Source: Escherichia coli
GTDB lineage: Bacteria > Pseudomonadota > Gammaproteobacteria > Enterobacterales > Enterobacteriaceae
Assembly (NCBI RefSeq): GCF_965641715.1
Contig: NZ_OZ282453.1
Reading direction: 5' to 3' (one strand)
Length of the DNA: 64,000 nucleotides
The first letter of the stretch is position 1, and the number at the start of each line of letters is the position of its first letter. A program made the translations under genes and the position numbers. The notes below the pieces were generated by a model, which searched no databases, was not told where the DNA came from, and saw nothing but the letters and a program-made list of their open reading frames with translations. Shown in pieces: positions 10,665-43,114 of this stretch.

Positions 10665-11729
10665 TTAACTGTAGGCATGTAGCGTACGTTGGCAAAGTGC
10701 CGAACGTACGCAATCCTCTTTACCGAACCGGACGATCCCGACCATTTCATCTTCTTCGAAACGTTCCAGCGCGTCACTTAATCCGGAGCACACGCCGCGA
10801 GGCAAATCGCATTGCGTGATATCACCGTTGACGATAACCGTCACGTTCTCCCCGAGGCGGGTTAAAAACATTTTCATTTGCGCGGCAGTCACATTCTGCG
10901 CCTCGTCAAGAATGACGACTGCATTTTCAAAGGTACGTCCACGCATATAGGCGAACGGCGCAATTTCCACCTTCCCTATTTCCGGTCGCAGGCAGTACTG
11001 CATAAAGGAAGCCCCTAAGCGCCGGACCAGCACGTCGTAGACCGGGCGAAAATAGGGAGCAAACTTTTCTGCGATATCTCCAGGTAAGAAGCCAAGATCT
11101 TCATCGGCTTGCAGAACTGGACGGGTGACGATAATCCTGTCGACATCCTTATGTATCAGGGCCTCTGCCGCTTTTGCTGCACTGATCCAGGTTTTTCCGC
11201 ACCCGGCTTCGCCCGTGGCGAATATCAGCTGCTTACTCTCAATAGCCTTCAGATAGTGCAATTGCGCTTCATTTCGCGCGAGGATGGGCGAAGTATCGCG
11301 ACTGTCGCGGGCCATACCAATGGCTTCTACGCCGCTCATCTGCACAAGCGAGGTGACCGATTCTTCTTCACGCTGCTTATGGCTGCGCGAATCCCGTCTC
11401 AGCACACGTTTTGCCTCGCGACGAGCTTTGATCACTGCTTTTTGTCTTCCCATGGAGAGCACCTTGAGTTGTTTGTATTCATCACACGCGCCGTTGGCAG
11501 CGCGATTATGCGCACGAACATCAGAGGGTTGGCTTCCTTGTAAGCCATAGTTTGCTTTTGGATAAAATGCCGAAAAACGGCTACGCGCACCGTTTACGGC
11601 GTCGGTAACACATGAAAAGAAAGGATGAGGTTGAAAATGCAAAGTGACGAGATGACTACCGGAGGAGAAAACTCCGCGAGTGGTGGCGCGTTGATTATCT
11701 AAAACATGTCCAGTACAGGACGTTACCAT
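10665..11729 (-). CDS. phoH: PhoH, ATP-binding Pho-regulon protein
   Basis: 354 aa. Walker A GEAGCGKT. Matches remembered PhoH. Confidence 0.95.
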   Translation of the reverse strand: MVTSCTGHVLDNQRATTRGVFSSGSHLVTLHFQPHPFFSCVTDAVNGARSRFSAFYPKANYGLQGSQPSDVRAHNRAANGACDEYKQLKVLSMGRQKAVIKARREAKRVLRRDSRSHKQREEESVTSLVQMSGVEAIGMARDSRDTSPILARNEAQLHYLKAIESKQLIFATGEAGCGKTWISAAKAAEALIHKDVDRIIVTRPVLQADEDLGFLPGDIAEKFAPYFRPVYDVLVRRLGASFMQYCLRPEIGKVEIAPFAYMRGRTFENAVVILDEAQNVTAAQMKMFLTRLGENVTVIVNGDITQCDLPRGVCSGLSDALERFEEDEMVGIVRFGKEDCVRSALCQRTLHAYS

Positions 11730-30596: not shown

Positions 30597-30963
30597 TACT
30601 GACCTCCGTCTGGGTATAGACATCATATTGCATAGAATTAACGCGGCGTATGGCGGCTGCCATATTTTCGCTACGTGGGACTAAGCTTAGTGAACTGACG
30701 CGGGCAGACCCGCGTTTGGTAATATCCTGCAACAGCTTCTTAGCGAGAATAGATATCATCTCCAATAATTATCTATAAGCCGCTCTTATGATTAAAAAAA
30801 CGCGATGAGATAAAAATGTGTCATTTTGCGACAAAATTGCGTGCTTGTGAAAGTTGTTATAAATCAAATAAGTGGTTGTGAAATTTGCACTCTGAAAAGG
30901 ACGTCTTATCTTTAAATAAGTGGTAGCGAATCGCTACGGAATAGAGATAACACGAGGAGTGGT

Positions 30964-31005
30964 TAGAAATGGCTAAAGTTCTGGTGCTTTTACATAGCTA
31001 AACAC
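30964..31005. other. attL of the wrbA island (proposed crossover GT at 30984-30985)
   Basis: The host-to-island transition is located by comparison with the attR junction. GTGCTTT is shared at 30984-30990 and 42533-42539. Confidence 0.7.
30969..31001 (+). pseudogene. wrbA: orphaned native 5' end of wrbA (MAKVLVLLHS*), severed by island insertion
   Basis: ATGGCTAAAGTTCTGGTGCTTT equals the remembered native wrbA start (MAKVLVLYYS...). The sequence diverges after 30990 and hits TAA at 30999-31001. Confidence 0.85.
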
Positions 31006-31329
31006 GTACATTCAACTACCTGTTAATTACAGGACATAAACAGGTTAGTACCTATTCAATTTAAAGGCATTTCCCCAAGTATCTAAGCAATTCTACACAG
31101 ATTCTATGCAGTATCGGTATAGTCCCTTTTTATCATAACTTATTGAAATATATAAAGAATCTGTGAAGTATCTTTTCAGGGTAAACTGTATCGTGTTAGT
31201 CGTCCCTCTCCAGACACTACATATAGTGCTATATACAGGGTTATATAGCGATGTATAGATGCTTGGTCACCATACGTTACAGTTGCAAGAGATAACAATC
31301 AGCTATGTGAAAGTTAGGAAGTGATGGTT

Positions 31330-31367
31330 ATAGTTGATTCGGTTAGTTCTAGGAATCAACCTCATAG
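31330..31367 (+). repeat. hairpin unit U1 (ATAGTTGATTC...CTCATAG family)
   Basis: Stem GTTGATTC (31333-31340) / GAATCAAC (31353-31360), 12-nt loop, then CTCATAG. Confidence 0.7.
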
Positions 31368-31934
31368 TTACCTTGTCAAATCTTCGTAGTTCCTCTTAAA
31401 AAATCACTTACAGACACCTTAATATCTATACAGATTTCATGTAGAACACGATTAGTGCGTAAAAAAGCTATTATGTTAAAAACGCACTGTATACGTATCA
31501 GTACTGATTTATAAGGGTTTTGTGTATTGGCTGATAAGAGGCTATACAGCACCTTGAGAGCATGTCTTGTAAGTCATTGATACATAAGGTCACAGAAGTT
31601 TGTAGCTGTTACAGAGAAAACTGGATAGGACTTCACAGGACTATAAAATGTTACAGCAATTGATAGGTGAAATCTTCTTGATAGATGCTGTGAAGTGTGA
31701 TGAAGGTTTCTTGAGGTGGAGTTAACAGATGCTATGAAGAAAGTCAATAGATATTTTAAAATTCTGCAAAGGGGGCCACATAGCTGGTGTGACGGGTACT
31801 TAGCAGGTATAGACCTGTGATAGATATTTTCGAAGATTCGGGGAAGATGAGATTCAAAGAGGACTAGTCATTTTTTATAAAAATTTTCAGAGTCTGAAAA
31901 GTTACTGCACAGATTTTGCACAATCCTACCAAGC

Positions 31935-31969
31935 CTCATAGTTGATTCGATTAGAAGCTAATCTCATAG
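31935..31969 (+). repeat. hairpin unit U2
   Basis: CTCATAG-TTGATTC, then stem GATTAG / CTAATC with loop AAG, then (C)TCATAG. Confidence 0.7.
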
Positions 31970-31972
31970 AAA

Positions 31973-32085
31973 GCTCTGTAGCGAGTTTTAACCCCATTTT
32001 TAGGGGTAACCTGTAGGGATGTACCACCCACCTTAAAATAAAGGGGTAAAATCGCTTAGAATGCGTTACAGAGCGTCTGAGAAGC
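31973..32085. repeat. inverted-repeat arm Y (partner 35643-35755)
   Basis: The reverse complement aligns without gaps to 35643-35755. 81 of 113 positions are identical by hand count. Confidence 0.75.
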
Positions 32086-32596
32086 CATATTCACAGATTT
32101 TACTAAAACCTCAGACTTCTAAGTGGTCTTTTTAACAGGAGGGTTCTTTCTCATGTATCACCCTCTCTTCCCGCCAAGTAAGCTACACAGACCTAGAGAA
32201 TATGCCTTCACAGCATCTATATCAGGTCAGATTTAGAGGTCTTGATAGAATCTTCAAAGGTACTTGACAGATAACTATGAAGTTGTTAGGAAGGGGTGTT
32301 TAACGGGGGAAGAGATACGATATAACCCGAAGGGGAGAGTATCATCTTAACAGTGATTGTAAGAGTAAAACTGAAAAGATACTTAACAGAACTACCAAGA
32401 GGGAGCGATAAGACCAGAGGTAGTGACCTGTTAAACAGTTCGTTTCAAAGCTCTTAAGAGTCTGTTAAGTAAGGTCATGTGAACAATCATATCATTTTGT
32501 CAATGCTTTTGTCTTTGACCTAAATCAATAAAATGTATCGTTTGATGTGCTTTTAAACAAAATAGTTAAAAATCTTTTTAGAGGGGCGCTTCGCTT

Positions 32597-33265
32597 GTGT
32601 CACATCCAATAATCCATATCGGTCGTTATCATGGTGGTTCTGATGACTGGCGTACACCGTATCGTCTATTTCATAACCTGCATCGTGAGTATAGCTTCAG
32701 TCTAGATGGCGCTGCAACTGAGCATGACGCATTGTTGCCACGGTTCACCGATGATATAAACCGTCAATCATGGGTTGGTGAACGGGTCTTCGTTAACCCG
32801 CCGTTTAGCATGGCTGAACAGTTCCTCGCAAAAGCCCCTGAAGCTGATGTGTGTGTATGTCTGGTTCCGCACAGGTCAAAGACAACTTACTGGCTTCGGT
32901 GTGTATATACAAACCCCTTCCTGCATGAGATTCGAACATTACACCGAGCGGTTAAATACCTTCCACCAGCAGGAAAGAGAGGTGTTGTAGCGCGTTCACC
33001 ATTTGCAAGCTGTGTTTTGATATACAGGAACACACCCCGTAAACCGAAGGTTGAAATTACCCAGACAATCTATTGTGGCGACACAATGCTTTTACTTGCC
33101 GTGGTTAATAGGGGTGGTTTACGTGGAAGACCTCATATACACGATGCACAGACGCTTGACAGGTTGATTAAAATGCATGACCAAGGGCAATCCGTCAAGA
33201 GTATCGCAGAATCGCTAAGAATGCCTCTAAGCACCACTTACAGGATTGTTCAAAGGTTGAGCTAA
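32597..33265 (+). CDS. phage Dam-family N6-adenine DNA methyltransferase fused to a C-terminal resolvase-type HTH
   Basis: GTG start with GAGGGG 10 nt upstream. DWRTP...FSLDGAA and VFVNPPFS (motif IV) resemble the phage T1/Stx-phage Dam family. The C-terminus GRPHIHDAQTLDRLIKMHDQGQSVKSIAESLRMPLSTTYRIV resembles the Hin/resolvase HTH. Confidence 0.75.
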   Translation: MSHPIIHIGRYHGGSDDWRTPYRLFHNLHREYSFSLDGAATEHDALLPRFTDDINRQSWVGERVFVNPPFSMAEQFLAKAPEADVCVCLVPHRSKTTYWLRCVYTNPFLHEIRTLHRAVKYLPPAGKRGVVARSPFASCVLIYRNTPRKPKVEITQTIYCGDTMLLLAVVNRGGLRGRPHIHDAQTLDRLIKMHDQGQSVKSIAESLRMPLSTTYRIVQRLS

Positions 33266-33266
33266 A

Positions 33267-33296
33267 ATTCTCATATAGAGCACTGATTATGAGAAT
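33267..33296 (+). terminator. 9-bp perfect hairpin directly after the methyltransferase stop
   Basis: ATTCTCATA (33267-33275) / TATGAGAAT (33288-33296), 12-nt loop. No clear T-tract, so its function is uncertain. Confidence 0.35.
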
Positions 33297-33474
33297 GTTA
33301 AAGAGGCGATTTCCCCTTTCTGGGGTTATTCGCTTTTTACTGGAAGGGTTATTTTACAGAGGTTTTTCAAACCCCCTCAATAATAAAAAACGAGCAACAA
33401 ACGAAGAGCGAGAAATAAAATATTGAGACTGGTGAACGGGGTCTGTAAAGATTGTTTAAGAAGTCGGTTTAGGG

Positions 33475-33518
33475 ATTGGTAGATGATTCGGATGAAGCAT
33501 CCTCATAACAATACCAAT
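33475..33518 (+). repeat. hairpin unit U3 (nested stems)
   Basis: Outer stem ATTGGTA / TACCAAT. TGATTCG. Inner stem GGATG-AAG-CATCC, then TCATAA. Confidence 0.65.
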
Positions 33519-33574
33519 TAGAAGGTGGCTCTCCCTTTCTGGGGATATCGCCTTGTATCTTAGTGAGTCCAGGA

Positions 33575-33751
33575 AGTTCTCTGTGAAGGGACTTGTCAGT
33601 CCTTTATATTGGCTAATTACAACTTATTGAAAAATAAGCATTTTTAGAAATCACTGTTAAGGTTACAGAGTTCTCTGTGAAGAGACTCGTCAGCTCTCTA
33701 TATTGGCTAATTACAACTCATTGAAAAATAAGCATTTTTAGAAATTGCTGT
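33575..33751 (+). repeat. two direct 83-bp repeats with 94-bp period
   Basis: 33575-33657 against 33669-33751: 75/83 identical by hand count. Each copy contains CTGTGAAG...CTTGTCAG/CTCGTCAG and the hairpin CTTATT-gaaa-AATAAG (copy A; copy B reads CTCATT). Confidence 0.85.
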
Positions 33752-33871
33752 CAGAGAGGTGAGTACTTGATAGATACAGCTTTCCGGTTCTGTCAAGATA
33801 TTTTTTAATAGATAGCACAAAATGCTAAAGATACCCCTATACCATCACGTACAGGGGGTTTTGAAGGGAGT

Positions 33872-34060
33872 TTAACGGGGTTCTGTGTGGTTATCTGTTC
33901 TGGTCCTGTCCTTGAGGTCAAATGACCATTCACGACCAAACAATCTGAACACGATAAACACCCGAACGATGAAATAGCGGAGCAGAAGACCTGCAATCAG
34001 CCCAACACCTCCACCAGCCCATACATCAGGTGACCCCAGCTCAGGAGGGAGATTTACCAT
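33872..34060 (-). CDS. possible small membrane protein (62 aa from the internal ATG; 74 aa from the first ATG at 34096)
   Basis: Only minus-strand ORF in the island besides int. This patch is visibly more GC-rich than the surrounding non-coding DNA. AGGAA lies upstream of ATG 34060. TM segment GGGVGLIAGLLLRYFIVRVFIVF followed by a basic tail. Confidence 0.35.
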   Translation of the reverse strand: MVNLPPELGSPDVWAGGGVGLIAGLLLRYFIVRVFIVFRLFGREWSFDLKDRTRTDNHTEPR

Positions 34061-34097
34061 TAAATTTCCTGTGTGCAATGCAATACCATGTGACATA

Positions 34098-34153
34098 CAT
34101 AGTTGATTCGGTTAGTTGGGCTTGTACCAACCCCTATCGAATAAACCTCATAG
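34098..34153 (+). repeat. hairpin unit U4 (nested stems)
   Basis: CATAGTTGATTCGGTTAGTT is identical to U1 over 19 nt. Outer stem TTGATTCG / CGAATAAA, inner stem GTTGG / CCAAC, ends in CTCATAG. Confidence 0.7.
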
Positions 34154-34222
34154 CCACGCTTCATATTTCCCCCTCTCTCATAAACCATTATACCACAAAT
34201 GTTACGAAATTGTTAAAAATAC

Positions 34223-34251
34223 TTGACATTAGTCTTTGAAAATGCTAGTAT
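34223..34251 (+). promoter_or_regulatory. island promoter P1 (sigma70-type)
   Basis: TTGACA-17 nt-TAGTAT, preceded by TGTTAAAAAT and followed by TGTATATA. It is a near-copy of P2. A GTTAA-N7-TTAAC palindrome follows at 34261-34277. Confidence 0.65.
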
Positions 34252-34299
34252 TGTATATAAGTTAACAGAGAATTAACAATTATAAGGACTAGCTTATGA

Positions 34300-34857
34300 A
34301 TGAACGACAGAGAATTTAGAGCGATGCTTCAGGCATCGAGACAACGTAACAGATACAACTCCTACAGCTACACAGACACCCCCACCAGCTACGAACTACC
34401 CAAGCTCACCAGAGCAGAACGCAAAGGCCTTGATGAATTAATTCGTAGCATTACGCCACGAGATAGATTTATGCCAACCAGAAAGAGCACGAAGAACACT
34501 ATTAAAAATTATCTGGCTAACTTTGACAGCTACGAACAATTACCAAGTAAGCTTGATGATGTAATTATCGGATTCTGTAGAAGTGAAGGTCACCCGAAAT
34601 ACAACAAAAAACTATTTTATCTTCTAAAGAATCTTGACGAAATTAACTCAGCCACCGTGACAAATCATCTTCAGCGTCAAGCAACCAGACTTAGCCATGA
34701 ATTACCAAGCGATAAATATTGCGCTTTGCTTGCTGTAATGTGCGCAAAGTTAATTGGTGTTGTTGAGCATCATATTGCCGTTGGAAATATTGAGCCAATG
34801 GAAAACGAGCAACCAGATTTCGAGTTTGACCCGTATTTAGTTACAGAGGAATTTTAA
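34300..34857 (+). CDS. hypothetical protein, 185 aa
   Basis: AAGGA upstream. First gene after P1. No family recognised. Confidence 0.65.
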   Translation: MNDREFRAMLQASRQRNRYNSYSYTDTPTSYELPKLTRAERKGLDELIRSITPRDRFMPTRKSTKNTIKNYLANFDSYEQLPSKLDDVIIGFCRSEGHPKYNKKLFYLLKNLDEINSATVTNHLQRQATRLSHELPSDKYCALLAVMCAKLIGVVEHHIAVGNIEPMENEQPDFEFDPYLVTEEF

Positions 34858-35136
34858 ATGAAGAAACACACTTTGACCCGTATTTCAGAAGAAGCCTTTC
34901 ACGAGCTTACCCGAATTAAACAGACAACTAACCTCCCTCATCAAACTGTTATGCAGCTTGCAATTGCTAAAGAGGTTACTGAGTCGGATTTACTGAAATA
35001 TCCAGTCTCTAAAGGTCGTAAGCACATCCGAATTACTCAGGACGCTTTAGATACTTTGAAGGCACTTAACAACTTTAAAATTGATATCGCCCGACTATTG
35101 AGTATTAAGATTCACAAGTTAGCAATGGGGGTTTAA
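34858..35136 (+). CDS. hypothetical protein, 92 aa (possible ribbon-helix-helix DNA binder)
   Basis: ATG abuts the upstream TAA. The N-terminal KKHTLTRISEEAFHEL pattern looks RHH-like (weak). Confidence 0.55.
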   Translation: MKKHTLTRISEEAFHELTRIKQTTNLPHQTVMQLAIAKEVTESDLLKYPVSKGRKHIRITQDALDTLKALNNFKIDIARLLSIKIHKLAMGV

Positions 35137-35351
35137 TGCTATGCGTTACCTTTGAATACCACACGGATAAAATGATTCGCTACATCTCCGACCTCCTGAT
35201 TGAAGGAAACGGATTCGGTGACATCCATAACTCAAAAGATATTTTCATTAAAGCCATTGGCCCAAATGAAGTACTGAAAACAGCAGTTAAACCGGAATGG
35301 TTTGAGCGTCACAAGATTGAATTAGGTTATTGGGGTGAGGAGGTTTTATGA
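35136..35351 (+). CDS. hypothetical protein, 71 aa
   Basis: TAATG overlap with the upstream gene. Confidence 0.55.
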   Translation: MLCVTFEYHTDKMIRYISDLLIEGNGFGDIHNSKDIFIKAIGPNEVLKTAVKPEWFERHKIELGYWGEEVL

Positions 35352-35635
35352 AACCTTGGCATGAAGATGTTAGACGATATTTTACAGAACACCTTATCTA
35401 TGATGAATCCAGTGATTCCCTGTGCTGGTCTGATGGAGAGTCAGTCACGATAAACACCGACGACTACGGCAACAAAACATTTAATATAGGCCGATATACT
35501 TTCTACGTGAAATATGTTGTCTGGTTCCTTTATCATGGCTATCAATCCAACAAGCAAATTATCCATCGAAATGGTAACAGAGCCGATACCAGACCAAAAA
35601 ATCTTATGCAAGTCCGAGACTTTAAGAGAAATTAG
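35348..35635 (+). CDS. small HNH-type endonuclease-like protein, 95 aa
   Basis: ATGA overlap with the upstream gene. YVVWFLYHGY...IHRNGNRADTRPKNL resembles the HNH_3 motif (H-x-N-G-N..DNR..NL). Confidence 0.65.
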   Translation: MKPWHEDVRRYFTEHLIYDESSDSLCWSDGESVTINTDDYGNKTFNIGRYTFYVKYVVWFLYHGYQSNKQIIHRNGNRADTRPKNLMQVRDFKRN

Positions 35636-35642
35636 AAAAACA

Positions 35643-35755
35643 GCTTCTCAGACGCTCTCAATCGCATTCTAACGCAAAAAACTATCTTATTTTAGGGTGG
35701 GTAATACCACTGTACAGGCTACCCCTGAAAAAGACTGTTTAGCTCGTTACAGAGC
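35643..35755. repeat. inverted-repeat arm X (partner 31973-32085)
   Basis: See arm Y. Lies in the 156-bp gap between the HNH gene and the next ORF. Confidence 0.75.
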
Positions 35756-35791
35756 GATTGAGGAGGTCTGGTAAAAAGGAGATTTTAAGAA

Positions 35792-36121
35792 ATGAGAGAA
35801 TTAAACTTCCCACTACAGATTTTTATTGATACCGACACCGCCATGATGATTCAGGCTTTCACTGATGTAGGTGTTAGCATTGACTTTGATAAGTTGTTAG
35901 AGTTAATGACTGATAATGCGGAAAGCATCTCTGACTTTATTCAGTCGGTGGAGTTTAACGAGCCTCGAATGATGCTACCAATTAAAGACAGCAACATGAA
36001 AAGATTGGTTATCGAGCAAACGAACAAATTCAGCGTTAGCCCTGAAAAATATCTCAAGGCGGCTATAGCAATTTTGTACGCTGACAATATTTTGGTGACG
36101 GATTCGAAGGTGGTGCATTAA
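35792..36121 (+). CDS. hypothetical acidic protein, 109 aa
   Basis: AAGGAG lies 8 nt upstream of the ATG. Confidence 0.6.
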   Translation: MRELNFPLQIFIDTDTAMMIQAFTDVGVSIDFDKLLELMTDNAESISDFIQSVEFNEPRMMLPIKDSNMKRLVIEQTNKFSVSPEKYLKAAIAILYADNILVTDSKVVH

Positions 36122-36186
36122 TGGAATTGGTGATTATCTGTTTTGTATTGATTGGTATGATTGCAGGTGCATCTATTAAAGTATAA
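36121..36186 (+). CDS. 21-aa hydrophobic peptide MELVIICFVLIGMIAGASIKV
   Basis: TAATG overlap with the upstream stop (translational coupling). Single TM-like stretch. Below the ORF-track size cutoff. Confidence 0.4.
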   Translation: MELVIICFVLIGMIAGASIKV

Positions 36187-36211
36187 ATGTTACCAATCTG
36201 TTAAAAATCTG

Positions 36212-36240
36212 TTGACAAATAACCTTGAGCATGACATAAT
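36212..36240 (+). promoter_or_regulatory. island promoter P2 (sigma70-type)
   Basis: TTGACA-17 nt-CATAAT, preceded by TGTTAAAAAT and followed by TGTATATA. Confidence 0.65.
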
Positions 36241-36246
36241 TGTATA

Positions 36247-36503
36247 TATATGAGGATAGTCTTCTATCCGAAGTCTATAGGGAGAGCAATTCTCCTTGAA
36301 TTAAAATATTAATCATCTCTACATCAATGATAACTATATTCTGAGTTGGTGAGGTATGTTCTATACCGAACATTCTGAAAGGTGCAATGCTTTTCGTCAT
36401 GGCCTTTCAGTTTAGTCTGAGAGGCTATCTCAAAAAGTGCTTAATCATTCATTCATTGAATCCTTTACAGCTTTGCCCTAATCATGAGTTAGGGCGTTTC
36501 TTT
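36247..36503 (+). ncRNA. putative ~255-nt leader/short RNA from P2 to the first terminator
   Basis: No ORF of 60 aa or more. Hairpins GGATAG-tctt-CTATCC, GGAGA-gcaat-TCTCC and CTGAAAGG (36375-36382) / CCTTTCAG (36403-36410). Ends at an intrinsic terminator. Confidence 0.3.
36475..36503 (+). terminator. intrinsic terminator in the P2 leader
   Basis: GCCCTAA-tcatgag-TTAGGGC followed by GTTTCTTT. Confidence 0.7.
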
Positions 36504-36573
36504 AAGAGTTTTAAGCAGAGCTTTTAAAGAAAGTTTTTCCTGAAACTTCGTTAACGTTATAAAGCAAACCTTC

Positions 36574-36610
36574 AAAGCCCTTCACAGATTCAATGTTTAG
36601 GGCTTTTCTT
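36574..36610 (+). terminator. second hairpin/terminator in the P2 leader
   Basis: AAAGCCCT / AGGGCTTT 8-bp stem. The 17-nt loop contains CTTCACAGATT. Followed by TCTT. Confidence 0.45.
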
Positions 36611-36707
36611 AATAGAGCATCTTTAATAAATCGTTAAGTCATCTTCTAAGTGTATTGGCGTTGAAGGTGCTCTGTTAAGAAATAAACCACACTTAGAGGA
36701 AGTTATA

Positions 36708-37418
36708 ATGACAAACGATTTATATATTAACGGTAAAAAGGTTGATAGCTTCGGTGACTGGTCGCCACAGACTGAACATCCAGCTATCACTATTCAGCGC
36801 AAAGAACACGATGAAAGAATTGCACTTGAGCAAGAAATCCGAATGTCACCAAAGGTAATTTCCTTTGTGGCTCCTGAGCCTCAAGATATGCCGGATATTT
36901 GCAAAACTGAAGCATTGCTTGAGCTTGAAAAGAAATTTTACCCAGCTTTAAAAGCACAGCGTCTTAAACTAGATGACGCTTACAGTAAAGTTACCCTGAT
37001 GCAATCAGCTATTGAGCCATCAGAATTTGAGATTCAGGATGAATTGTCACAGAAACCATTTGTCTATTACCAATATGAAGACAATGATGGTTTTGGTACT
37101 TTTCCTGAGAATATCCCAGACGTGATTAATAATCCGATGGATGGATATCGAATTGTGAAGATGGTTAAGGCATCAAGAGGTGCTGGTCAGTTTATTTACA
37201 TGACTAATAAGAGCGATGAAGAACTCGCTGAACTTGCTAGACAGAACATCTTGGCATCACGTAACAAGCAGCTTGATAATGTTAAGTTGTATCTCTCAAG
37301 AGAGCTTCAGGCTATGAAAGACCTTGTGAAAGAATATGAAGATGCTAAGAAGATTGCTATGCAAGCCGATATTGAGCAGTTAGTGAAGATTTCTAGCAAA
37401 TATGCAAAGGCTATTTAA
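36708..37418 (+). CDS. hypothetical acidic/coiled-coil protein, 236 aa
   Basis: AGAGGAAG upstream. It sits where tail assembly chaperones sit in siphophage gene order, but I saw no sequence motif supporting that role. Confidence 0.6.
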   Translation: MTNDLYINGKKVDSFGDWSPQTEHPAITIQRKEHDERIALEQEIRMSPKVISFVAPEPQDMPDICKTEALLELEKKFYPALKAQRLKLDDAYSKVTLMQSAIEPSEFEIQDELSQKPFVYYQYEDNDGFGTFPENIPDVINNPMDGYRIVKMVKASRGAGQFIYMTNKSDEELAELARQNILASRNKQLDNVKLYLSRELQAMKDLVKEYEDAKKIAMQADIEQLVKISSKYAKAI

Positions 37419-37437
37419 TTATGATGTGAGGTGAAGA

Positions 37438-37653
37438 ATGATTGATTTAACTGAACGCTATGAAGTTATTAAGTCTGTTTGTGAGAACTTAAAGCTTCAG
37501 ACTAAACCAAAGCTACGAATTAAAAATCAGCATCAAGTTATCACCTCACACAAACCAAAGGTTAGAAGGATTCCTTCATGGTGTATTGACCGTGTTCCTG
37601 CTGATGCTCAATTAATTGGTGAGTCTGGTTCTTACACTTATATCCTTCATTAA
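37438..37653 (+). CDS. hypothetical basic protein, 71 aa
   Basis: GAGGTGAAG upstream. Confidence 0.5.
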   Translation: MIDLTERYEVIKSVCENLKLQTKPKLRIKNQHQVITSHKPKVRRIPSWCIDRVPADAQLIGESGSYTYILH

Positions 37654-37660
37654 AAATTAC

Positions 37661-37704
37661 AAAGGGGAGAGATTAGCCTTAATTGGTTAGTCTTTCCCTT
37701 TTTC
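37661..37704 (+). terminator. imperfect hairpin + T-run upstream of the tape-measure gene
   Basis: aaaggggagaga ... tctttccctttttcg, with a bulged stem. Confidence 0.4.
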
Positions 37705-37734
37705 GTATATGAACACTTAAGAGGTGAAACATGA

Positions 37735-39864
37735 ATGGCACAGTTTAAAGTTGATAGTTTTATCGTTGAGCTAGGCTTCAGCGAGAACGTTATTAAGGGC
37801 TTGCAAAGAGTTGAAAAGGCAGCTTTGCAGTCAGCACAAAGAATTGAGCGTAATTTGAATAGAGCGTTTAAGGTCGATACCAAGCAACTTGACAGCAATT
37901 TAACGGCTTCTTTGAAGTCAATGGAAGGAAAAATTAATAAGACCTTTGACCGTCTGGAAGCTAGAGCAAAAAATACTAAAGCTTTCCAGTTTACCACCAG
38001 ATTTAATGACACTGTTAATCCTCCAAAACAACCGAGACAGCCACGAATTAGCGGCAACAGAGCAATCACAGCAGCTTACTCAGCGAATATGAGCAAGTTA
38101 AAGGGCTTTGACCCTATTTTGCAGAAATACATCAAATCTCAGTTTTACGGGCTATCTGCTAAAGCTGGGTCAATGGATAACACCAAGTTTAATGAAGCCC
38201 TTGCTAAACTAAATTCAAGTGTAAGAGAAGCAATTGCTAAAGCTAAAGGTCATACATCCACCAGCATTAACGGTGACAGAGCAGCTAATAGTCTTGATAA
38301 CCTGTCTTCAGCGGCGGTTAAAACAGCAGGTGCATTTATCTCAATGCAGGCTGTATTAGCCAGTTATCAGAAGATTATGGAGGTTGGTTTACAGCGTGCA
38401 AGTGCTGAGCGTTCAATTGATTTCGTATTTGATAAAGATGCAGGTCAGGTAAAAGAGTTCACAAAGTCATTAGCTCAAACAACGGGTTTAGATATCGCTG
38501 AACTGCAATCACAGTTTGCTGGTTTCGGTGCTTCAGCTAAAGAGTCTATGGGTATTCAAGGTTCTGAAGAGCTTTTTAGAAATATGATTGGCTATGCTCG
38601 TTTAATGGGTCGAAGTGAAGAAGAGATTAAGCGAGCACTGACAGCATTATCACAGATGGCTGGTAAGGGTCAGGTTATGGCTGAAGAGCTTAAGGGGCAA
38701 CTAGCTGAAGCTGTTCCTGGTATGGTTCAGGTATTCGCTAAAGCAACCGGAAAGAGTGAACAGGAATTATTTGATGCCATGAAGAAGGGGGCTTTAAAAT
38801 CTGCCGATACTCTTCAGAAGGTCACTCAGGAACTGAATAGACAAATCACCGCTAAAGGTGGCTGGAAAGCTATTTCAGAAAGTACACAGGCACAACTAGG
38901 GAACTTGAAAAACTCTTGGAATACCACGCTTGACAGTATTTTCAGAGGTTCTGAAGATGGTTTACAGGACTTCACAAGAAGCTTAACCAATCTTCTAAAC
39001 GCTCTTGGTGGAACTGGTAAAACATTAGGTGAAAGTTTTGGTAGCTTGATGAGCGATATGTCACATGGTATCGATTCATTGACTGATATCTCTTACAGGG
39101 TACGAGGTTTCTTTGATGAGGTGACATTAGCTTACCGTTCACTAAATGACACTCAGAAAAAAATTGTTGATGGTTTATCTGATGGGTTAATTGATGGTTT
39201 GAAAATGCTTGCCGTAGCTGTTACTGCTCAAAAGGCTGCAAATGTAGCTGGAGGCTTGTTAAACCTTGCAAACGCTGTTACTTCATTCGGTGACGCTGTT
39301 AATAAAGCTAAAGCTGGCAAGGCTGGTTCTTCAGGTGGTGCGCTAAGTAAAGTCGGTAGAGTTGTCCTTTATGCTGAGTTGGTAAACTTTGCTCTTGATA
39401 ATTTAAACCCTGAAGCAGCTAAGAATCCGAACTTACATCAATCAGGTATTGGAACAGAGACAAACTTCAACCCTGAATACAAAGGCGATTCTACACCAAA
39501 CCAAATTAATGATGGATGGGCTAAGATTGGTAGTTCTATCGCTGACTGGTTTAATGGTGCGGCTAATAAAATTGCTAACTTCCAAGAGCCAATGAGTAAC
39601 CTTGTTAATAACACACAATCAACTCCACCAGCTATTACAGGTGACATGGTTAATAGCAATGCTCAACTTGCAATGGCTATTAGTGAACTATCACGTAAGG
39701 TTGATGCTTTAACAGCAGAATCTAAGAAGCCCTTGTCACTTAATATCAAAGGTGAAGCAATTGTTAGACCGGATGAACCAGCTTTCTTTACTTTCAATCA
39801 ATCAGCTAATGACCAGTTCACGCAGGATATGCTCTTAAGTTCAAGCTATCCAGAGGAAGAATGA
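37735..39864 (+). CDS. phage tail tape-measure protein, 709 aa
   Basis: GAGGTG lies 8 nt upstream. LSQMAGKGQVMAEELKGQLAEAVPGMVQVFAKATGKSEQELFDAMKKGALKSADTL matches the conserved tape-measure N-terminal domain pattern. Long Ala/Gly/Ser-rich helical protein. Confidence 0.8.
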   Translation: MAQFKVDSFIVELGFSENVIKGLQRVEKAALQSAQRIERNLNRAFKVDTKQLDSNLTASLKSMEGKINKTFDRLEARAKNTKAFQFTTRFNDTVNPPKQPRQPRISGNRAITAAYSANMSKLKGFDPILQKYIKSQFYGLSAKAGSMDNTKFNEALAKLNSSVREAIAKAKGHTSTSINGDRAANSLDNLSSAAVKTAGAFISMQAVLASYQKIMEVGLQRASAERSIDFVFDKDAGQVKEFTKSLAQTTGLDIAELQSQFAGFGASAKESMGIQGSEELFRNMIGYARLMGRSEEEIKRALTALSQMAGKGQVMAEELKGQLAEAVPGMVQVFAKATGKSEQELFDAMKKGALKSADTLQKVTQELNRQITAKGGWKAISESTQAQLGNLKNSWNTTLDSIFRGSEDGLQDFTRSLTNLLNALGGTGKTLGESFGSLMSDMSHGIDSLTDISYRVRGFFDEVTLAYRSLNDTQKKIVDGLSDGLIDGLKMLAVAVTAQKAANVAGGLLNLANAVTSFGDAVNKAKAGKAGSSGGALSKVGRVVLYAELVNFALDNLNPEAAKNPNLHQSGIGTETNFNPEYKGDSTPNQINDGWAKIGSSIADWFNGAANKIANFQEPMSNLVNNTQSTPPAITGDMVNSNAQLAMAISELSRKVDALTAESKKPLSLNIKGEAIVRPDEPAFFTFNQSANDQFTQDMLLSSSYPEEE

Positions 39865-40020
39865 TTTAACGGTGTTCTACGTGAATAAAGCAAAGTTAAT
39901 ACCCACACCAAAAATTATTTTTCACGTAGCTCACGCTTAACAGAGAAAATACATATATATCAAAGGCTTGGTTAAAAATGATTAAAATACACTAAGCCTT
40001 TGAAATCAAAGGAGAATTTA

Positions 40021-40794
40021 ATGATTTTTAGCAATCAAATCCGCTACAGTGGCAAAGATGGCATCTATTTCCACTTAAGAGATAATGTAGATGCCTTCTT
40101 AACCTTATCAGCAACTGAAAACATGGAATTTGACAGTCCTATGCAGGTGACTACACAGAACATGCAATCAGGGCAAACCGTCACAGATAATGTGCAAAGA
40201 GCACCCAGAACAATCACTATTAGTGGTGTCGTTGTAGTTGGCTATGAAGGAAGCTTATTATTAACTCGTCAGGGTCAATTAGTAGAAAACTTCATTGACA
40301 CTCTTGAAAGCTGGAGAGACCAGAAACAAATTATTTCAGTGATTTGTAAAGATGGTATCAAGATTGATGACTCAATTATTACCAACTTTAAAGCCTCTAA
40401 AGATGTTACTATCTCTAACGGTCTTCGTATCCAGCTAACTTTTCAGGAAATTAACTTCAAAGCCATTGTAGGGCAAACTGATGTTTCAGCAGCTACTGGC
40501 AAAACTGCTACCACTAATGATGGTGGTGCTACCAGTAAAAAGAATGCGGGTAACGTGACTACTGAACGCAATAACGCACCTATGTTGATGTGTCAGGAAC
40601 TGTATAGCTACTCAGCATCTGAGCTATCTGATGAAGCGCTAAGGGTCCGTAGCAATTGCTCTAAAAATGTCACGGTGAAAGATGGTGTAAGCACCTTCAC
40701 AGCCTCAGCTAATGAGCAGGCTTCAAAAGTGCTTAAGTCGGGTAATGCTTTACGGAAGTTTAGTGTGAATCCGAATAAGAAGGGCACTTATTGA
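40021..40794 (+). CDS. putative tail-tip/distal-tail-like protein, 257 aa
   Basis: GGAG lies 6 nt upstream of ATG 40021. Sits directly after the TMP. The assignment rests on position only. Confidence 0.45.
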
Positions 40795-40811
40795 TTGGTA
40801 ACAATACCAAT
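40794..40811. terminator. hairpin between the convergent tail gene and int
   Basis: ATTGGTA-acaa-TACCAAT. These are the same arms as the outer stem of unit U3. Confidence 0.45.
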
Positions 40812-40813
40812 TC

Positions 40814-42457
40814 CTAAGCGTCCACCTCTTCCATATCACCAGCAGGATAAATCCTTGTTACTGGTTCACCAAAAATAAGCATATCATCTAGTGACTGCAT
40901 CTCATCGGTTGCTTCTTCAAGCGTTAAGGTGTGGTCATCTTTACCATCAAGAGGGAAACCACGAATCATATTTCCATTGTGAAGATATATATCCACCAGC
41001 TTTTCATTACCAGAAACAACAATCTCTTTCACCAGACGCTTAATGATAATCTGGGCTTCAGTTCTCCCCTCTACAGACTCCATATCAAGACCGCTTAAAT
41101 CCAAGCTTGATACAGATTTTACCCTCGCCTTTTCTCGTGATAACTGAACTATCAGTTCATCTTTTTCTTCCTGCTTAACCCGTAGTGCTTCCTGAATCTG
41201 AGTGATGTTAGGAAGCTGTATCAGCGTCTCAGTAAGTTTTTCAAGTTCACTATCAACGGTGTTTAGTCTGCGTTGTAGCTCATCCAATTTAGCTGTGTCA
41301 GTAGCTTCATCGTGTAGCTGTGATAGTTTGCTGAACAGACGACTACAAAGCTGTGTATCAAGTAACTTTCTGGACACTGTACCGTAGCTACAACGGGACT
41401 CCTTATTACCATTGCAACGGTAAGTACCTTGATAAACGGGTTTACGTATCCCTGTAGGAGTCATTACAAGCCCACACTTACAACGGATAAGCCCCTTCAG
41501 TATGTTCACATATAGCCAGTGTTCACCGCTGGATGTTTTCCCCTTCCCTGTTTCCTCTAACAGTTGCTGTACAGCGTAAAACTTAGAGTCTGTGACAATC
41601 TGAGGATAGAACCCTTCAATTTCTTCACGTAACACTGTTTTACGGTCTTCTGTAGAAATCTTAGCGGGAAGGTAACCTAATACACTTCGTGAAGTCAGGA
41701 TGTGTTTAACGCTTAATGCTGACCAGTTGCCATCCGGTTTCTTAGTCTTGGATATTCTGACCTTACGCTGATTAATGGTCGGGTAACCTTGTTCGTTTAG
41801 CCATTTACAGATAGCAAACATCGACATACCAGAAAGACGCTTGTCATAGATGATATTCACCAGTGACGCTTTATCTTCATCAACGATGTAGTGTGAACCG
41901 TCTTCTGATAGCTCTAACCATCCGGGGGCTTGCTTACCCATAGGCTTCTTAAGTTCTCTTGCAAGCTGTGTTTTATGGTTCCAGACCTGAGCTATACGCT
42001 TTTGCTTAACAAGAGATTCCTGATGTGCTCTCTCAGCTATGATGATGTGCTTAATCAACTTCACAGGGTCTGTTAATGCTGATTTGTCGTAGAGTTCACC
42101 ATCTCCCAGAGTCAGTATAGAGACTCCTTTCCTCAGTATCTGCCTGACATCATCTATAGCTGTGTCGATATCAGCCCTACTGAAGCGGTCAAAGTTCTCT
42201 ACAACAATCAGGGAACCTTCTGGAATAGCCCCAGACATAACATTTTCAAACATACGTCTGAAGTCAGAACCTTGAGCCTTATGTTGCTGGTGAAAACCAG
42301 ATTTACCCTTATCAACGTATCTGTGAGCAGGAAGAAGGTAATAATCGTTTTTGTGCTTAGAGTAGAAAGCATCAATGAGGTTTGTTTGCCGTCTTAAGGA
42401 GTCTCCTGAGTCTTGCTCTTTAGTACTCCACCTGATGTATGTCACTAGCAGCTTCAT
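40814..42457 (-). CDS. large serine recombinase (integrase), 547 aa
   Basis: N-terminal resolvase catalytic domain ([28 protein letters not shown]). Recombinase domain. Cys-rich zinc ribbon (CKCG...YRCNG...C). Coiled-coil. Terminal position 75 bp from attR. Confidence 0.88.
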
Positions 42458-42508
42458 ATCTTCGGACTATGCTTATCTAAGTGGTTCATTGAACAGGAGA
42501 ACAATGAT

Positions 42509-43114
42509 ATGAGTGTTAAGGCAAGAATACTAGTGCTTTATTATTCCATGTACGGACATATTGAAACGATGGCACGCGCAGTCGCTGAGGGTGCAAGCAA
42601 AGTGGATGGCGCTGAAGTTGTCGTTAAGCGTGTACCGGAAACCATGCCGCCGCAATTATTTGAAAAAGCAGGCGGTAAAACGCAAACTGCACCGGTTGCA
42701 ACCCCACAAGAACTGGCCGATTACGACGCCATTATTTTTGGTACACCTACCCGCTTTGGCAACATGTCCGGTCAAATGCGTACCTTCCTCGACCAGACGG
42801 GCGGCCTGTGGGCTTCCGGCGCACTATACGGAAAACTGGCGAGCGTCTTTAGTTCCACCGGTACTGGCGGCGGTCAGGAACAAACCATCACATCCACCTG
42901 GACGACCCTTGCGCATCACGGCATGGTGATTGTCCCCATTGGCTACGCAGCGCAGGAATTATTTGACGTTTCACAGGTTCGCGGCGGTACGCCGTACGGC
43001 GCAACCACCATCGCAGGCGGTGACGGCTCACGCCAGCCAAGCCAGGAAGAACTGTCTATTGCTCGTTATCAAGGGGAATATGTCGCAGGTCTGGCAGTTA
43101 AACTTAACGGCTAA
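42509..43114 (+). CDS. wrbA: NAD(P)H:quinone oxidoreductase WrbA, hybrid allele with an island-encoded N-terminus
   Basis: 201 aa. [17 protein letters not shown]... against remembered native [14 protein letters not shown].... AGGAG at 42495-42499. The remainder matches WrbA. Confidence 0.92.
42513..42554. other. attR of the wrbA island (proposed crossover GT at 42533-42534)
   Basis: Island-to-wrbA transition. See attL. Confidence 0.7.

Follow-up and report, generated by a model that had tools for sequence, protein, structure and literature searches.

The 64-kb stretch of Escherichia coli DNA analyzed here (the window) raises the question of what a pair of long direct repeats does for the low-GC island that carries it. 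A preliminary description of this DNA reported two 83-bp direct repeats with a 94-bp period, each holding an imperfect palindrome and an AT hairpin, and likened them to the crr repeats of P4 or to an operator duplication. In our repeat search of the window the pair was recovered with 75 of 83 positions identical (90%) and starts 94 bp apart, a match far beyond chance, and the same arrangement is kept in other genomes. Each copy contains the palindrome CTGTGAAG(G/A)GACT(T/C)GTCAG, as had been described, and TATATTGGCTAATTACAACT is found in both copies. The hairpin letters CTTATT-GAAA-AATAAG followed by CATTTTT are present in copy A, copy B reading CTCATT, and the hairpin half AACTTATTGAAA occurs again at 31135-31146, 15 bp ahead of CTGTGAAG at 31161. 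The longest perfect run common to the two copies is 26 bp, and in the window they show gene-conversion-like mixing. The units and the elements mapped in and beside them are as follows.

33575-33657, plus strand: repeat unit A, the first copy (repeat search; aligned with 24 other copies).
33581-33599, plus strand: 19-bp imperfect palindrome CTGTGAAGGGACTTGTCAG, the site of unit A, found with the pattern CTGTKAAGNNNCTKKWCAG.
33620-33632, minus strand: IHF-like element TTTCAATAAGTTG in the AT-rich half of unit A, overlapping the "AT hairpin".
33654-33661, plus strand: the word CTGTTAAG at the junction of A and B, 21 bp ahead of the next CTGTGAAG.
33669-33751, plus strand: repeat unit B, the second copy (repeat search; B copies of separate loci, E. 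albertii included, cluster together).
33675-33693, plus strand: 19-bp site CTGTGAAGAGACTCGTCAG of unit B, one mismatch to the pattern.
33714-33726, minus strand: IHF-like element TTTCAATGAGTTG of unit B.
33748-33756, plus strand: the word CTGTCAGAG, closing unit B.
33752-33871, no strand assigned: highly conserved stretch after the units, with 94.9% mean identity across loci, the top of the intergenic region.

The window is chromosomal DNA, and the island occupies 30991-42539 (11,549 bp), within the 5' end of wrbA, with a duplicated GTGCTTT core at its two ends. The same gene order is present at no fewer than three chromosomal sites (yciI/tonB, ymdF/wrbA, and yecE), and relatives were found in about 440-470 of 5,426 complete E. 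coli genomes (∼8%), at a median of two places per genome. Its main features, other than the repeats, are listed here.

32597-33265: Dam-type methylase with a C-terminal HTH.
33872-34060, minus strand: small conserved ORF of ∼62 amino acids with one hydrophobic stretch.
34187-34251: strong divergent sigma-70 promoter pair.
34858-35136, plus strand: p92, a 92-residue tandem ribbon-helix-helix (RHH) protein, second gene of the conserved operon (AF2 pLDDT 90.6).
37735-39864: tape-measure-like protein.
40000-40794: Dit-like tail protein.
40814-42457, minus strand: large serine recombinase.

The operon that follows the promoter pair encodes small proteins of unknown function, an HNH nuclease among them. 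No capsid, terminase, or recognizable replication genes were found in the island; scans of its ORFs with Pfam, PHROGs, NCBIfam, and PADLOC identified no primase, helicase, or Rep domain, and there were no DnaA boxes. The orphan methylase was the sole match to defence-system models, and a tRNA/tmRNA scan returned nothing. The literature searched held no description of this island, nor of a satellite of Felix O1-type phages. The small ORF at 33872-34060, with a possible toxin or holin-like role, has a near-consensus promoter (TTAACA-18-TATAAT with TG) divergent from that of the operon. In one Logan contig of about island size (L028, ERR13984191, 10,907 bp), from a related element, the left non-coding region has a serine recombinase gene as its immediate left-hand neighbour, and this contig may represent a circular or excised form or another gene order. 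Elsewhere in the window, a second low-GC patch (44923-46173, minus strand, 33% GC) holds a 416-codon ORF ∼2.4 kb past the island, and Rfam matches outside the island were to Ysr251 (10670-10863), naRNA4 (47721-47799), and the cspA thermoregulator (58482-58904).

We next consider how widely the unit is kept. It was found in all 25 related loci read, which were drawn from E. coli, E. albertii, Citrobacter, and metagenome or assembly contigs, with one or two copies in each. These 25 include 9 of 9 loci that had been retrieved through neighbouring-protein homology alone and thus were not selected on the repeat. On comparison with 19 loci, the identity of the unit was 88-90% and that of the adjoining genes 81-88%, and the block just upstream of unit A proved to be a mosaic of cassettes. 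An alignment of 20 copies contains 44 invariant columns that are grouped as four blocks: (C)TGTGAAG; then CT..CAG, which closes the palindrome; TATAT followed by TGGnTnATTACAACT-n-ATTGAAAAATAAG; and TTTTAGAA..CTGT. The A-to-B junction, a marker of the two-copy state, was detected (≥80% coverage) in 323 E. coli genomes and the whole region in 439, and the plasmid collection gave no match. Distant relatives of p185, the first protein of the operon, were located in L020, a contig of phage type, and in L021, a contig from a metagenome. Neither contains a tandem unit of this sort, the only repeats in L021 being a weak 34-nt pair with a spacing of 81 bp.

The two copies differ in their histories. 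The B copies are near-identical across loci and species (E. coli and E. albertii) and cluster together, and the A copies, which differ at the palindrome centre, comprise three variants among the islands. All two-copy loci share almost the same second copy, and the duplication is therefore an old one. A lone copy was found in six of the first 16 loci, with an A-like 5' end and a B-like 3' end, a hybrid sequence that points to an origin by A/B deletion. As single-copy islands occur at several places in the chromosome, persistence does not require the second copy. No three-copy array was present among the loci read, and the one flagged candidate (H83) has two copies. It had been proposed that copy number varying freely among homologues, with no phenotype, would count against a function; half of this is seen, in that copy number is one or two among the homologues. 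The unit could accordingly be one functional module accompanied by a neutral tandem duplicate that persists as deletion is slow. The hybrid single copies would fit repeated recombinational loss, the A/B mixing in the window agrees with such exchange, and with a longest perfect run of only 26 bp the loss may indeed be slow. However, the first copy is variable and the second near-identical among divergent islands and between species, a difference suggestive of separate constraints. Moreover, two copies are retained by most carriers, and the lack of three-copy arrays in the loci read disfavours free slippage. We regard a neutral duplicate as rather improbable.

On the basis of the alignment, the first two conserved blocks of the unit form a 19-bp motif, CTGTKAAG-N3-CTKKWCAG. 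The word CTGTGAAG/CTTCACAG, previously described as island-wide, occurs nine times in the 64 kb, in every case within the island (31161-42066), compared with 1.7 expected, and 0 of 100 shuffles reached nine. When the window was scanned for the full site with the pattern CTGTKAAGNNNCTKKWCAG, one mismatch being allowed, five sites were obtained against 0.01 expected, all in non-coding DNA of the island and in both orientations. Two are those of the units, and the other three are dispersed, as listed with the block that precedes one of them.

31132-31152: partial AT/IHF-like block ahead of the 31161 site, with an IHF-like element at 31136-31148 on the minus strand.
31161-31179, plus strand: dispersed 19-bp site ∼170 bp inside attL, preceded by the partial AT/IHF-like block.
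31894-31912, minus strand: dispersed 19-bp site with one mismatch.
32371-32389, minus strand: dispersed 19-bp site, the inverted partner of 31160-31179 (95% complementary).

These three sites share one non-coding region, 1.2-2.4 kb from the tandem repeats. The position of the first is kept in five full-length islands at three integration sites, the last is conserved in L001, L005, L007, L011, and L025-L028, and the motif occurs at matching positions in other islands; none was found in the phage loci examined. A further copy of CTGTGAAG, at 40695-40702, has a conserved position within the Dit-like gene of five islands, and the word is nowhere in the homologous Dit-like gene of the phage.

Within each unit a single 19-bp site adjoins an AT-rich core of 27-32% GC. 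In iteron-type origins (SaPI, PLE, or plasmid style) the initiator sites are repeated beside an AT-rich unwinding region and the initiator gene is adjacent; here each unit has one site, and none of the nearby genes was recognized as an initiator. The sequence TCAA-N4-TTG is invariant in every aligned copy of this core, and the variable bases are the N positions. The IHF consensus is WATCAANNNNTTR; the minus-strand TTTCAA-N4-TTG agrees with it at 12 of 13 positions, a match that is not significant alone, as the relaxed pattern occurs 14 times in the window versus 8.5 expected, and some homologues read ATCAA-N4-TTG.

Could the unit instead act as RNA? In this alternative it would be a small RNA gene or an intrinsic terminator, duplicated, with the AT hairpin and its T-run terminating transcription. 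The string CTTATT-GAAA-AATAAG and then CATTTTT does resemble a weak terminator, but its stem has six base pairs, five of them A-T, and the units were not called in a terminator scan. RNA folding of the units was at the shuffle level (z of -0.35 to -1.27), and Rfam gave nothing at the gathering threshold for the whole window and nothing at E ≤ 1 for 30900-34400. Covariation in three candidate helices, the palindrome and the AT hairpin among them, did not rise above that of shuffle or slide controls, the apparent compensatory changes amounting to one pair in three sequences. The variants CTCATT and CTCGTT break the AT hairpin without a compensating change, and pair 65-76 is broken, uncompensated, in 8 of 19 sequences. 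The letters of the hairpin are thus as first described, whereas its structure is not conserved, and we judge an RNA or terminator function highly improbable for the units. The adjacent stretch 33752-33871 contains three predicted hairpins, with fold z values of -2.8 and -2.9 on the two strands and a terminator-like stem at 33834-33857; it is possibly a 3' UTR, a bidirectional terminator, or a small RNA.

The suggestion of an operator duplication belongs to a broader possibility of transcriptional control, according to which the units would be duplicated operators, a silencer, or tandem weak leftward promoters, and an island regulator bound at the 19-bp sites would silence the island until helper infection. 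Each unit has a conserved minus-strand match to a promoter (CTGACA or TTAACA, 18 nt, TATTTT; 9/12), the 19-bp sites are scattered in the manner of regulator sites (near attL and int, ahead of the methylase gene, and within the units), RHH proteins often act as repressors, and the strong sigma-70 promoter of the operon needs some restraint. However, 9/12 matches occur at about chance frequency (six versus 3.1 expected around the units; five versus 5.5 in the left region), and 440-680 bp separate the units from the strong promoters at 34187-34251, where no 19-bp site occurs. Moreover, no conserved ORF or structured RNA lies downstream on the minus strand, where the block is mosaic. A sigma-70 scan gave no credible plus-strand promoter in the units and none over the dispersed sites, and CTGTGAAG has no -10-like element after it at its other sites. 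The operator duplication is weakly supported, since the strong promoters are distant and free of the site and the promoter-like matches that overlap the units are weak; transcriptional control as a whole seems unlikely to us. Taken together, the evidence supports a DNA-level, cis-acting protein-binding module over an RNA or a promoter.

The island is related to Felix O1-type phages. Its Dit-like gene shares 92% DNA identity with them over 519 bp, a stretch matched by 278 phage records. At the protein level, the Dit-like product and its phage counterpart share 75% identity, and the tape-measure protein shares 31.5% over 478 residues with that of the phage. Felix O1-type genomes have direct terminal repeats of ∼580-650 bp, with published lengths of 581-608 bp (PMC4837284, PMC8303462). 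In phage NBEco005, bases 1-651 equal bases 87622-88272, and we read this segment as the direct terminal repeat, a reading that fits the published lengths. Island 31750-31905 resembles NBEco005 601-756, which spans the right boundary of the 651-bp repeat, and the first part (31750-31774) is identical at 25 of 25 positions; from this resemblance, 31750-31905 is a candidate packaging-signal mimic. A second stretch, 33453-33520, is 91% identical to NBEco005 242-307 and ends ∼55 bp ahead of unit A. It overlaps a 52-bp cassette (33470-33523) with inverted ends ATTGGTA...TACCAAT, ∼50 bp upstream of unit A, that is 98-100% identical to a stretch inside the terminal repeats of NBEco004 and NBEco005 and 94% identical to EC106; only three phage records contain it. 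Among islands the cassette is absent from several, cut to ∼24 bp in others, and located elsewhere in one. Its sequence shows that DNA has been exchanged with the phages, but the cassette does not hold a fixed place beside the repeat.

The phage terminal repeat is also rich in plus-strand TGTNARR words (e.g., TGTTAAG), spaced by 11, 20, 22, 31, and 33 bp; the first kilobase holds 18, compared with a genome mean of 2.4 per kb per strand. Island 33400-33900 contains six such words, all on the plus strand, at spacings of 138, 73, 21, 73, and 42 bp, the last four of which are close to whole helical turns, a phasing drawn from five spacings only. These words flank the repeats, so that each unit opens and closes with one.

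Such resemblances raise the possibility of a packaging-recognition module, in which the units would mimic the terminal-repeat region of the helper and recruit its terminase or a specificity factor, the oriented words with an IHF bend between them acting as in lambda cosB. The direct terminal repeats of Felix O1-type phages, the word family common to the phage repeat and island 33400-33900, and the matches of 31750-31905 and 33453-33520 to the terminal-repeat region all speak for it, and in PLE a short pac mimicry beside the origin can suffice (PMC11417361). Against it, the unit itself has no phage counterpart: a profile search with nhmmer gave no significant match in NBEco005 (best E 0.1), and the 19-bp motif is absent from the phage. 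In addition, the phage-like piece near unit A is the 52-bp insertion, which is missing from many unit-bearing islands and present in three phage records only. The IMG/VR matches to the unit are contigs of 25-55 kb that are probably host-genome predictions and so uninformative on packaging. We consider a packaging role somewhat unlikely.

Other repeated sequences were noted in the same non-coding DNA. The sequence ATAGTTGATTCGGTTAGTT has three copies (31330-31348, 31938-31956, and 34099-34117), and the last belongs to a ∼50-bp hairpin-forming cassette (∼34094-34145) that is found in some islands and absent from others. A 14-bp repeat array, GTCGGTTAAGAAGG, has one to four copies among islands (upstream of unit A in L016, L018, and L004; ∼33453-33470 in the window) and resembles the GTTGTTAAGAAGG words of the phage terminal non-coding region. 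A perfect 15-nt inverted repeat, ATAGATGCTGTGAAG at 31681-31695 and CTTCACAGCATCTAT at 32206-32220, has arms 510 bp apart that bracket the segment resembling the phage terminal-repeat boundary; a segment like 31750-31905 is also present in a Citrobacter island (L017, 2559-2734).

Which protein might bind the repeats? The AF2 model of p92, obtained with high confidence, comprises two ribbon-helix-helix repeats in one chain. Its best Foldseek matches were ∼102-120-residue chains of F-plasmid relaxosome entries, which we take to be TraY, followed by DndE and AvtR, with E values that were weak (0.02-0.5) and mutually consistent. Neither p92 nor p236 had a sequence match among solved structures. 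From this predicted fold we infer that p92 may bind the repeats. However, the 19-bp site is unchanged in islands whose p92 is only 60-73% identical, and no co-variation of the site with p92 variants was seen; as the site stays constant while p92 diverges, nothing ties this protein specifically to the site. The other nearest conserved gene encodes p185, a member of a narrow family (22 matches among 1.8 billion representatives) whose model had no fold match, and neither p185 nor p92 has similarity to Rep proteins. In the 22.7-kb phage-like contig L020 (Logan DRR517675), which includes a large terminase and a portal, a distant p185 homologue is the first gene after ∼1.6 kb of non-coding DNA, so the p185 family may stem from a phage early region.

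We conclude that the repeats are two copies of a conserved non-coding module, and that this module most likely binds proteins in cis. Each module is made up of three parts: the 19-bp imperfect palindrome, suited to a dimeric or pseudo-dimeric DNA-binding protein; an AT-rich stretch of ∼55 bp with a putative IHF-type bend site (TCAA-N4-TTG, minus strand); and a closing CTGTYAR word. Placed in tandem, the modules set these words 21, 42, and 73 bp apart, equivalent to 2, 4, and 7 helical turns. A site-binding protein, either island-encoded (p92 being the candidate) or helper-encoded, together with IHF-type bending could then form a looped nucleoprotein complex that would mark the island DNA. After infection by a helper, its most likely role would be as an origin or replication enhancer, in the manner of ori and crr of P4. 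We assign this reading, in which the protein binding, the use of IHF, the looping, and the replication role are all inferred, a probability of roughly 0.35.

The proposed likeness to P4 crr holds for layout and not for family membership. As in P4 ori/crr, each of two tandem direct repeats of about 100 bp carries a short site, further copies of which cluster in other non-coding DNA 1-4 kb away, and both elements are small and integrative, P4 being dependent on a helper phage. Origin and enhancer regions in general are laid out along similar lines. The P4 type I iteron, TGTTCACC, is bound by the alpha primase-helicase. In the window this iteron has three matches in 64 kb versus 2.0 expected, none of them in non-coding DNA of the island, where the sole match (41520) is within the recombinase gene, and no alpha-like protein was detected in the island. 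The repeats also differ in form, being 83 bp with a 94-bp period and a single 19-bp palindromic site each, compared with ∼120 bp for P4 crr, and the helper family would be a virulent Felix O1-type myovirus rather than P2. As membership fails on both the iteron word and an alpha-type initiator, the likeness is functional and architectural only.

Three other systems offer partial parallels. The modules resemble lambda cosB, with its terminase-binding R sites and IHF site I1, in that an IHF-type bend site lies between short, oriented repeats, but the 19-bp site lacks a phage counterpart and Felix O1-type phages use direct terminal repeats; we know of no cos site or terminase small subunit for these phages. 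In the F plasmid, TraY beside IHF sites bends DNA into a nucleoprotein complex. The predicted tandem RHH fold of p92 recalls this oriT relaxosome through a weak fold match (E 0.02), whereas no relaxase or nic site was found in the island. The Vibrio cholerae PLE is similarly an island of ∼11-18 kb with a large serine recombinase and a relation to a virulent myovirus, and it too has short helper-identical stretches, as well as a long non-coding region followed by clustered small genes of unknown function (PMC11417361). We found no sequence or protein similarity to PLE and no RepA-like initiator, and the island has tape-measure and Dit-like genes that PLE lacks.

A bolder reading, tentative and with the balance against it, is that the island belongs to an undescribed satellite family of virulent Felix O1-type myoviruses, in which the modules and the three dispersed sites would mark the element's identity, acting in cis as an origin or packaging platform recognized by an island protein and IHF. 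Existing satellite categories (P4-like, PICI, cfPICI, PLE, and PICMI) are unlikely to catch such islands, given their gene content. Should the repeats prove dispensable, they would amount to no more than a regulatory site duplicated long ago. As a feature, the repeat is real, conserved, and specific to this island family, and the surrounding island is arguably the bigger lead. Being small, conserved, island-specific, and easily deleted, the repeats may also provide a sequence signature for islands of this kind. Felix O1-type phages are the classic typing and biocontrol phages of Salmonella and E. coli, and if they are exploited or blocked by this island family, its most obvious cis-acting handle would be the repeats with their 19-bp sites. 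If the satellite reading is true, the modules would enable an 88-kb lytic phage with direct terminal repeats to replicate and mobilize 11.5 kb of DNA.
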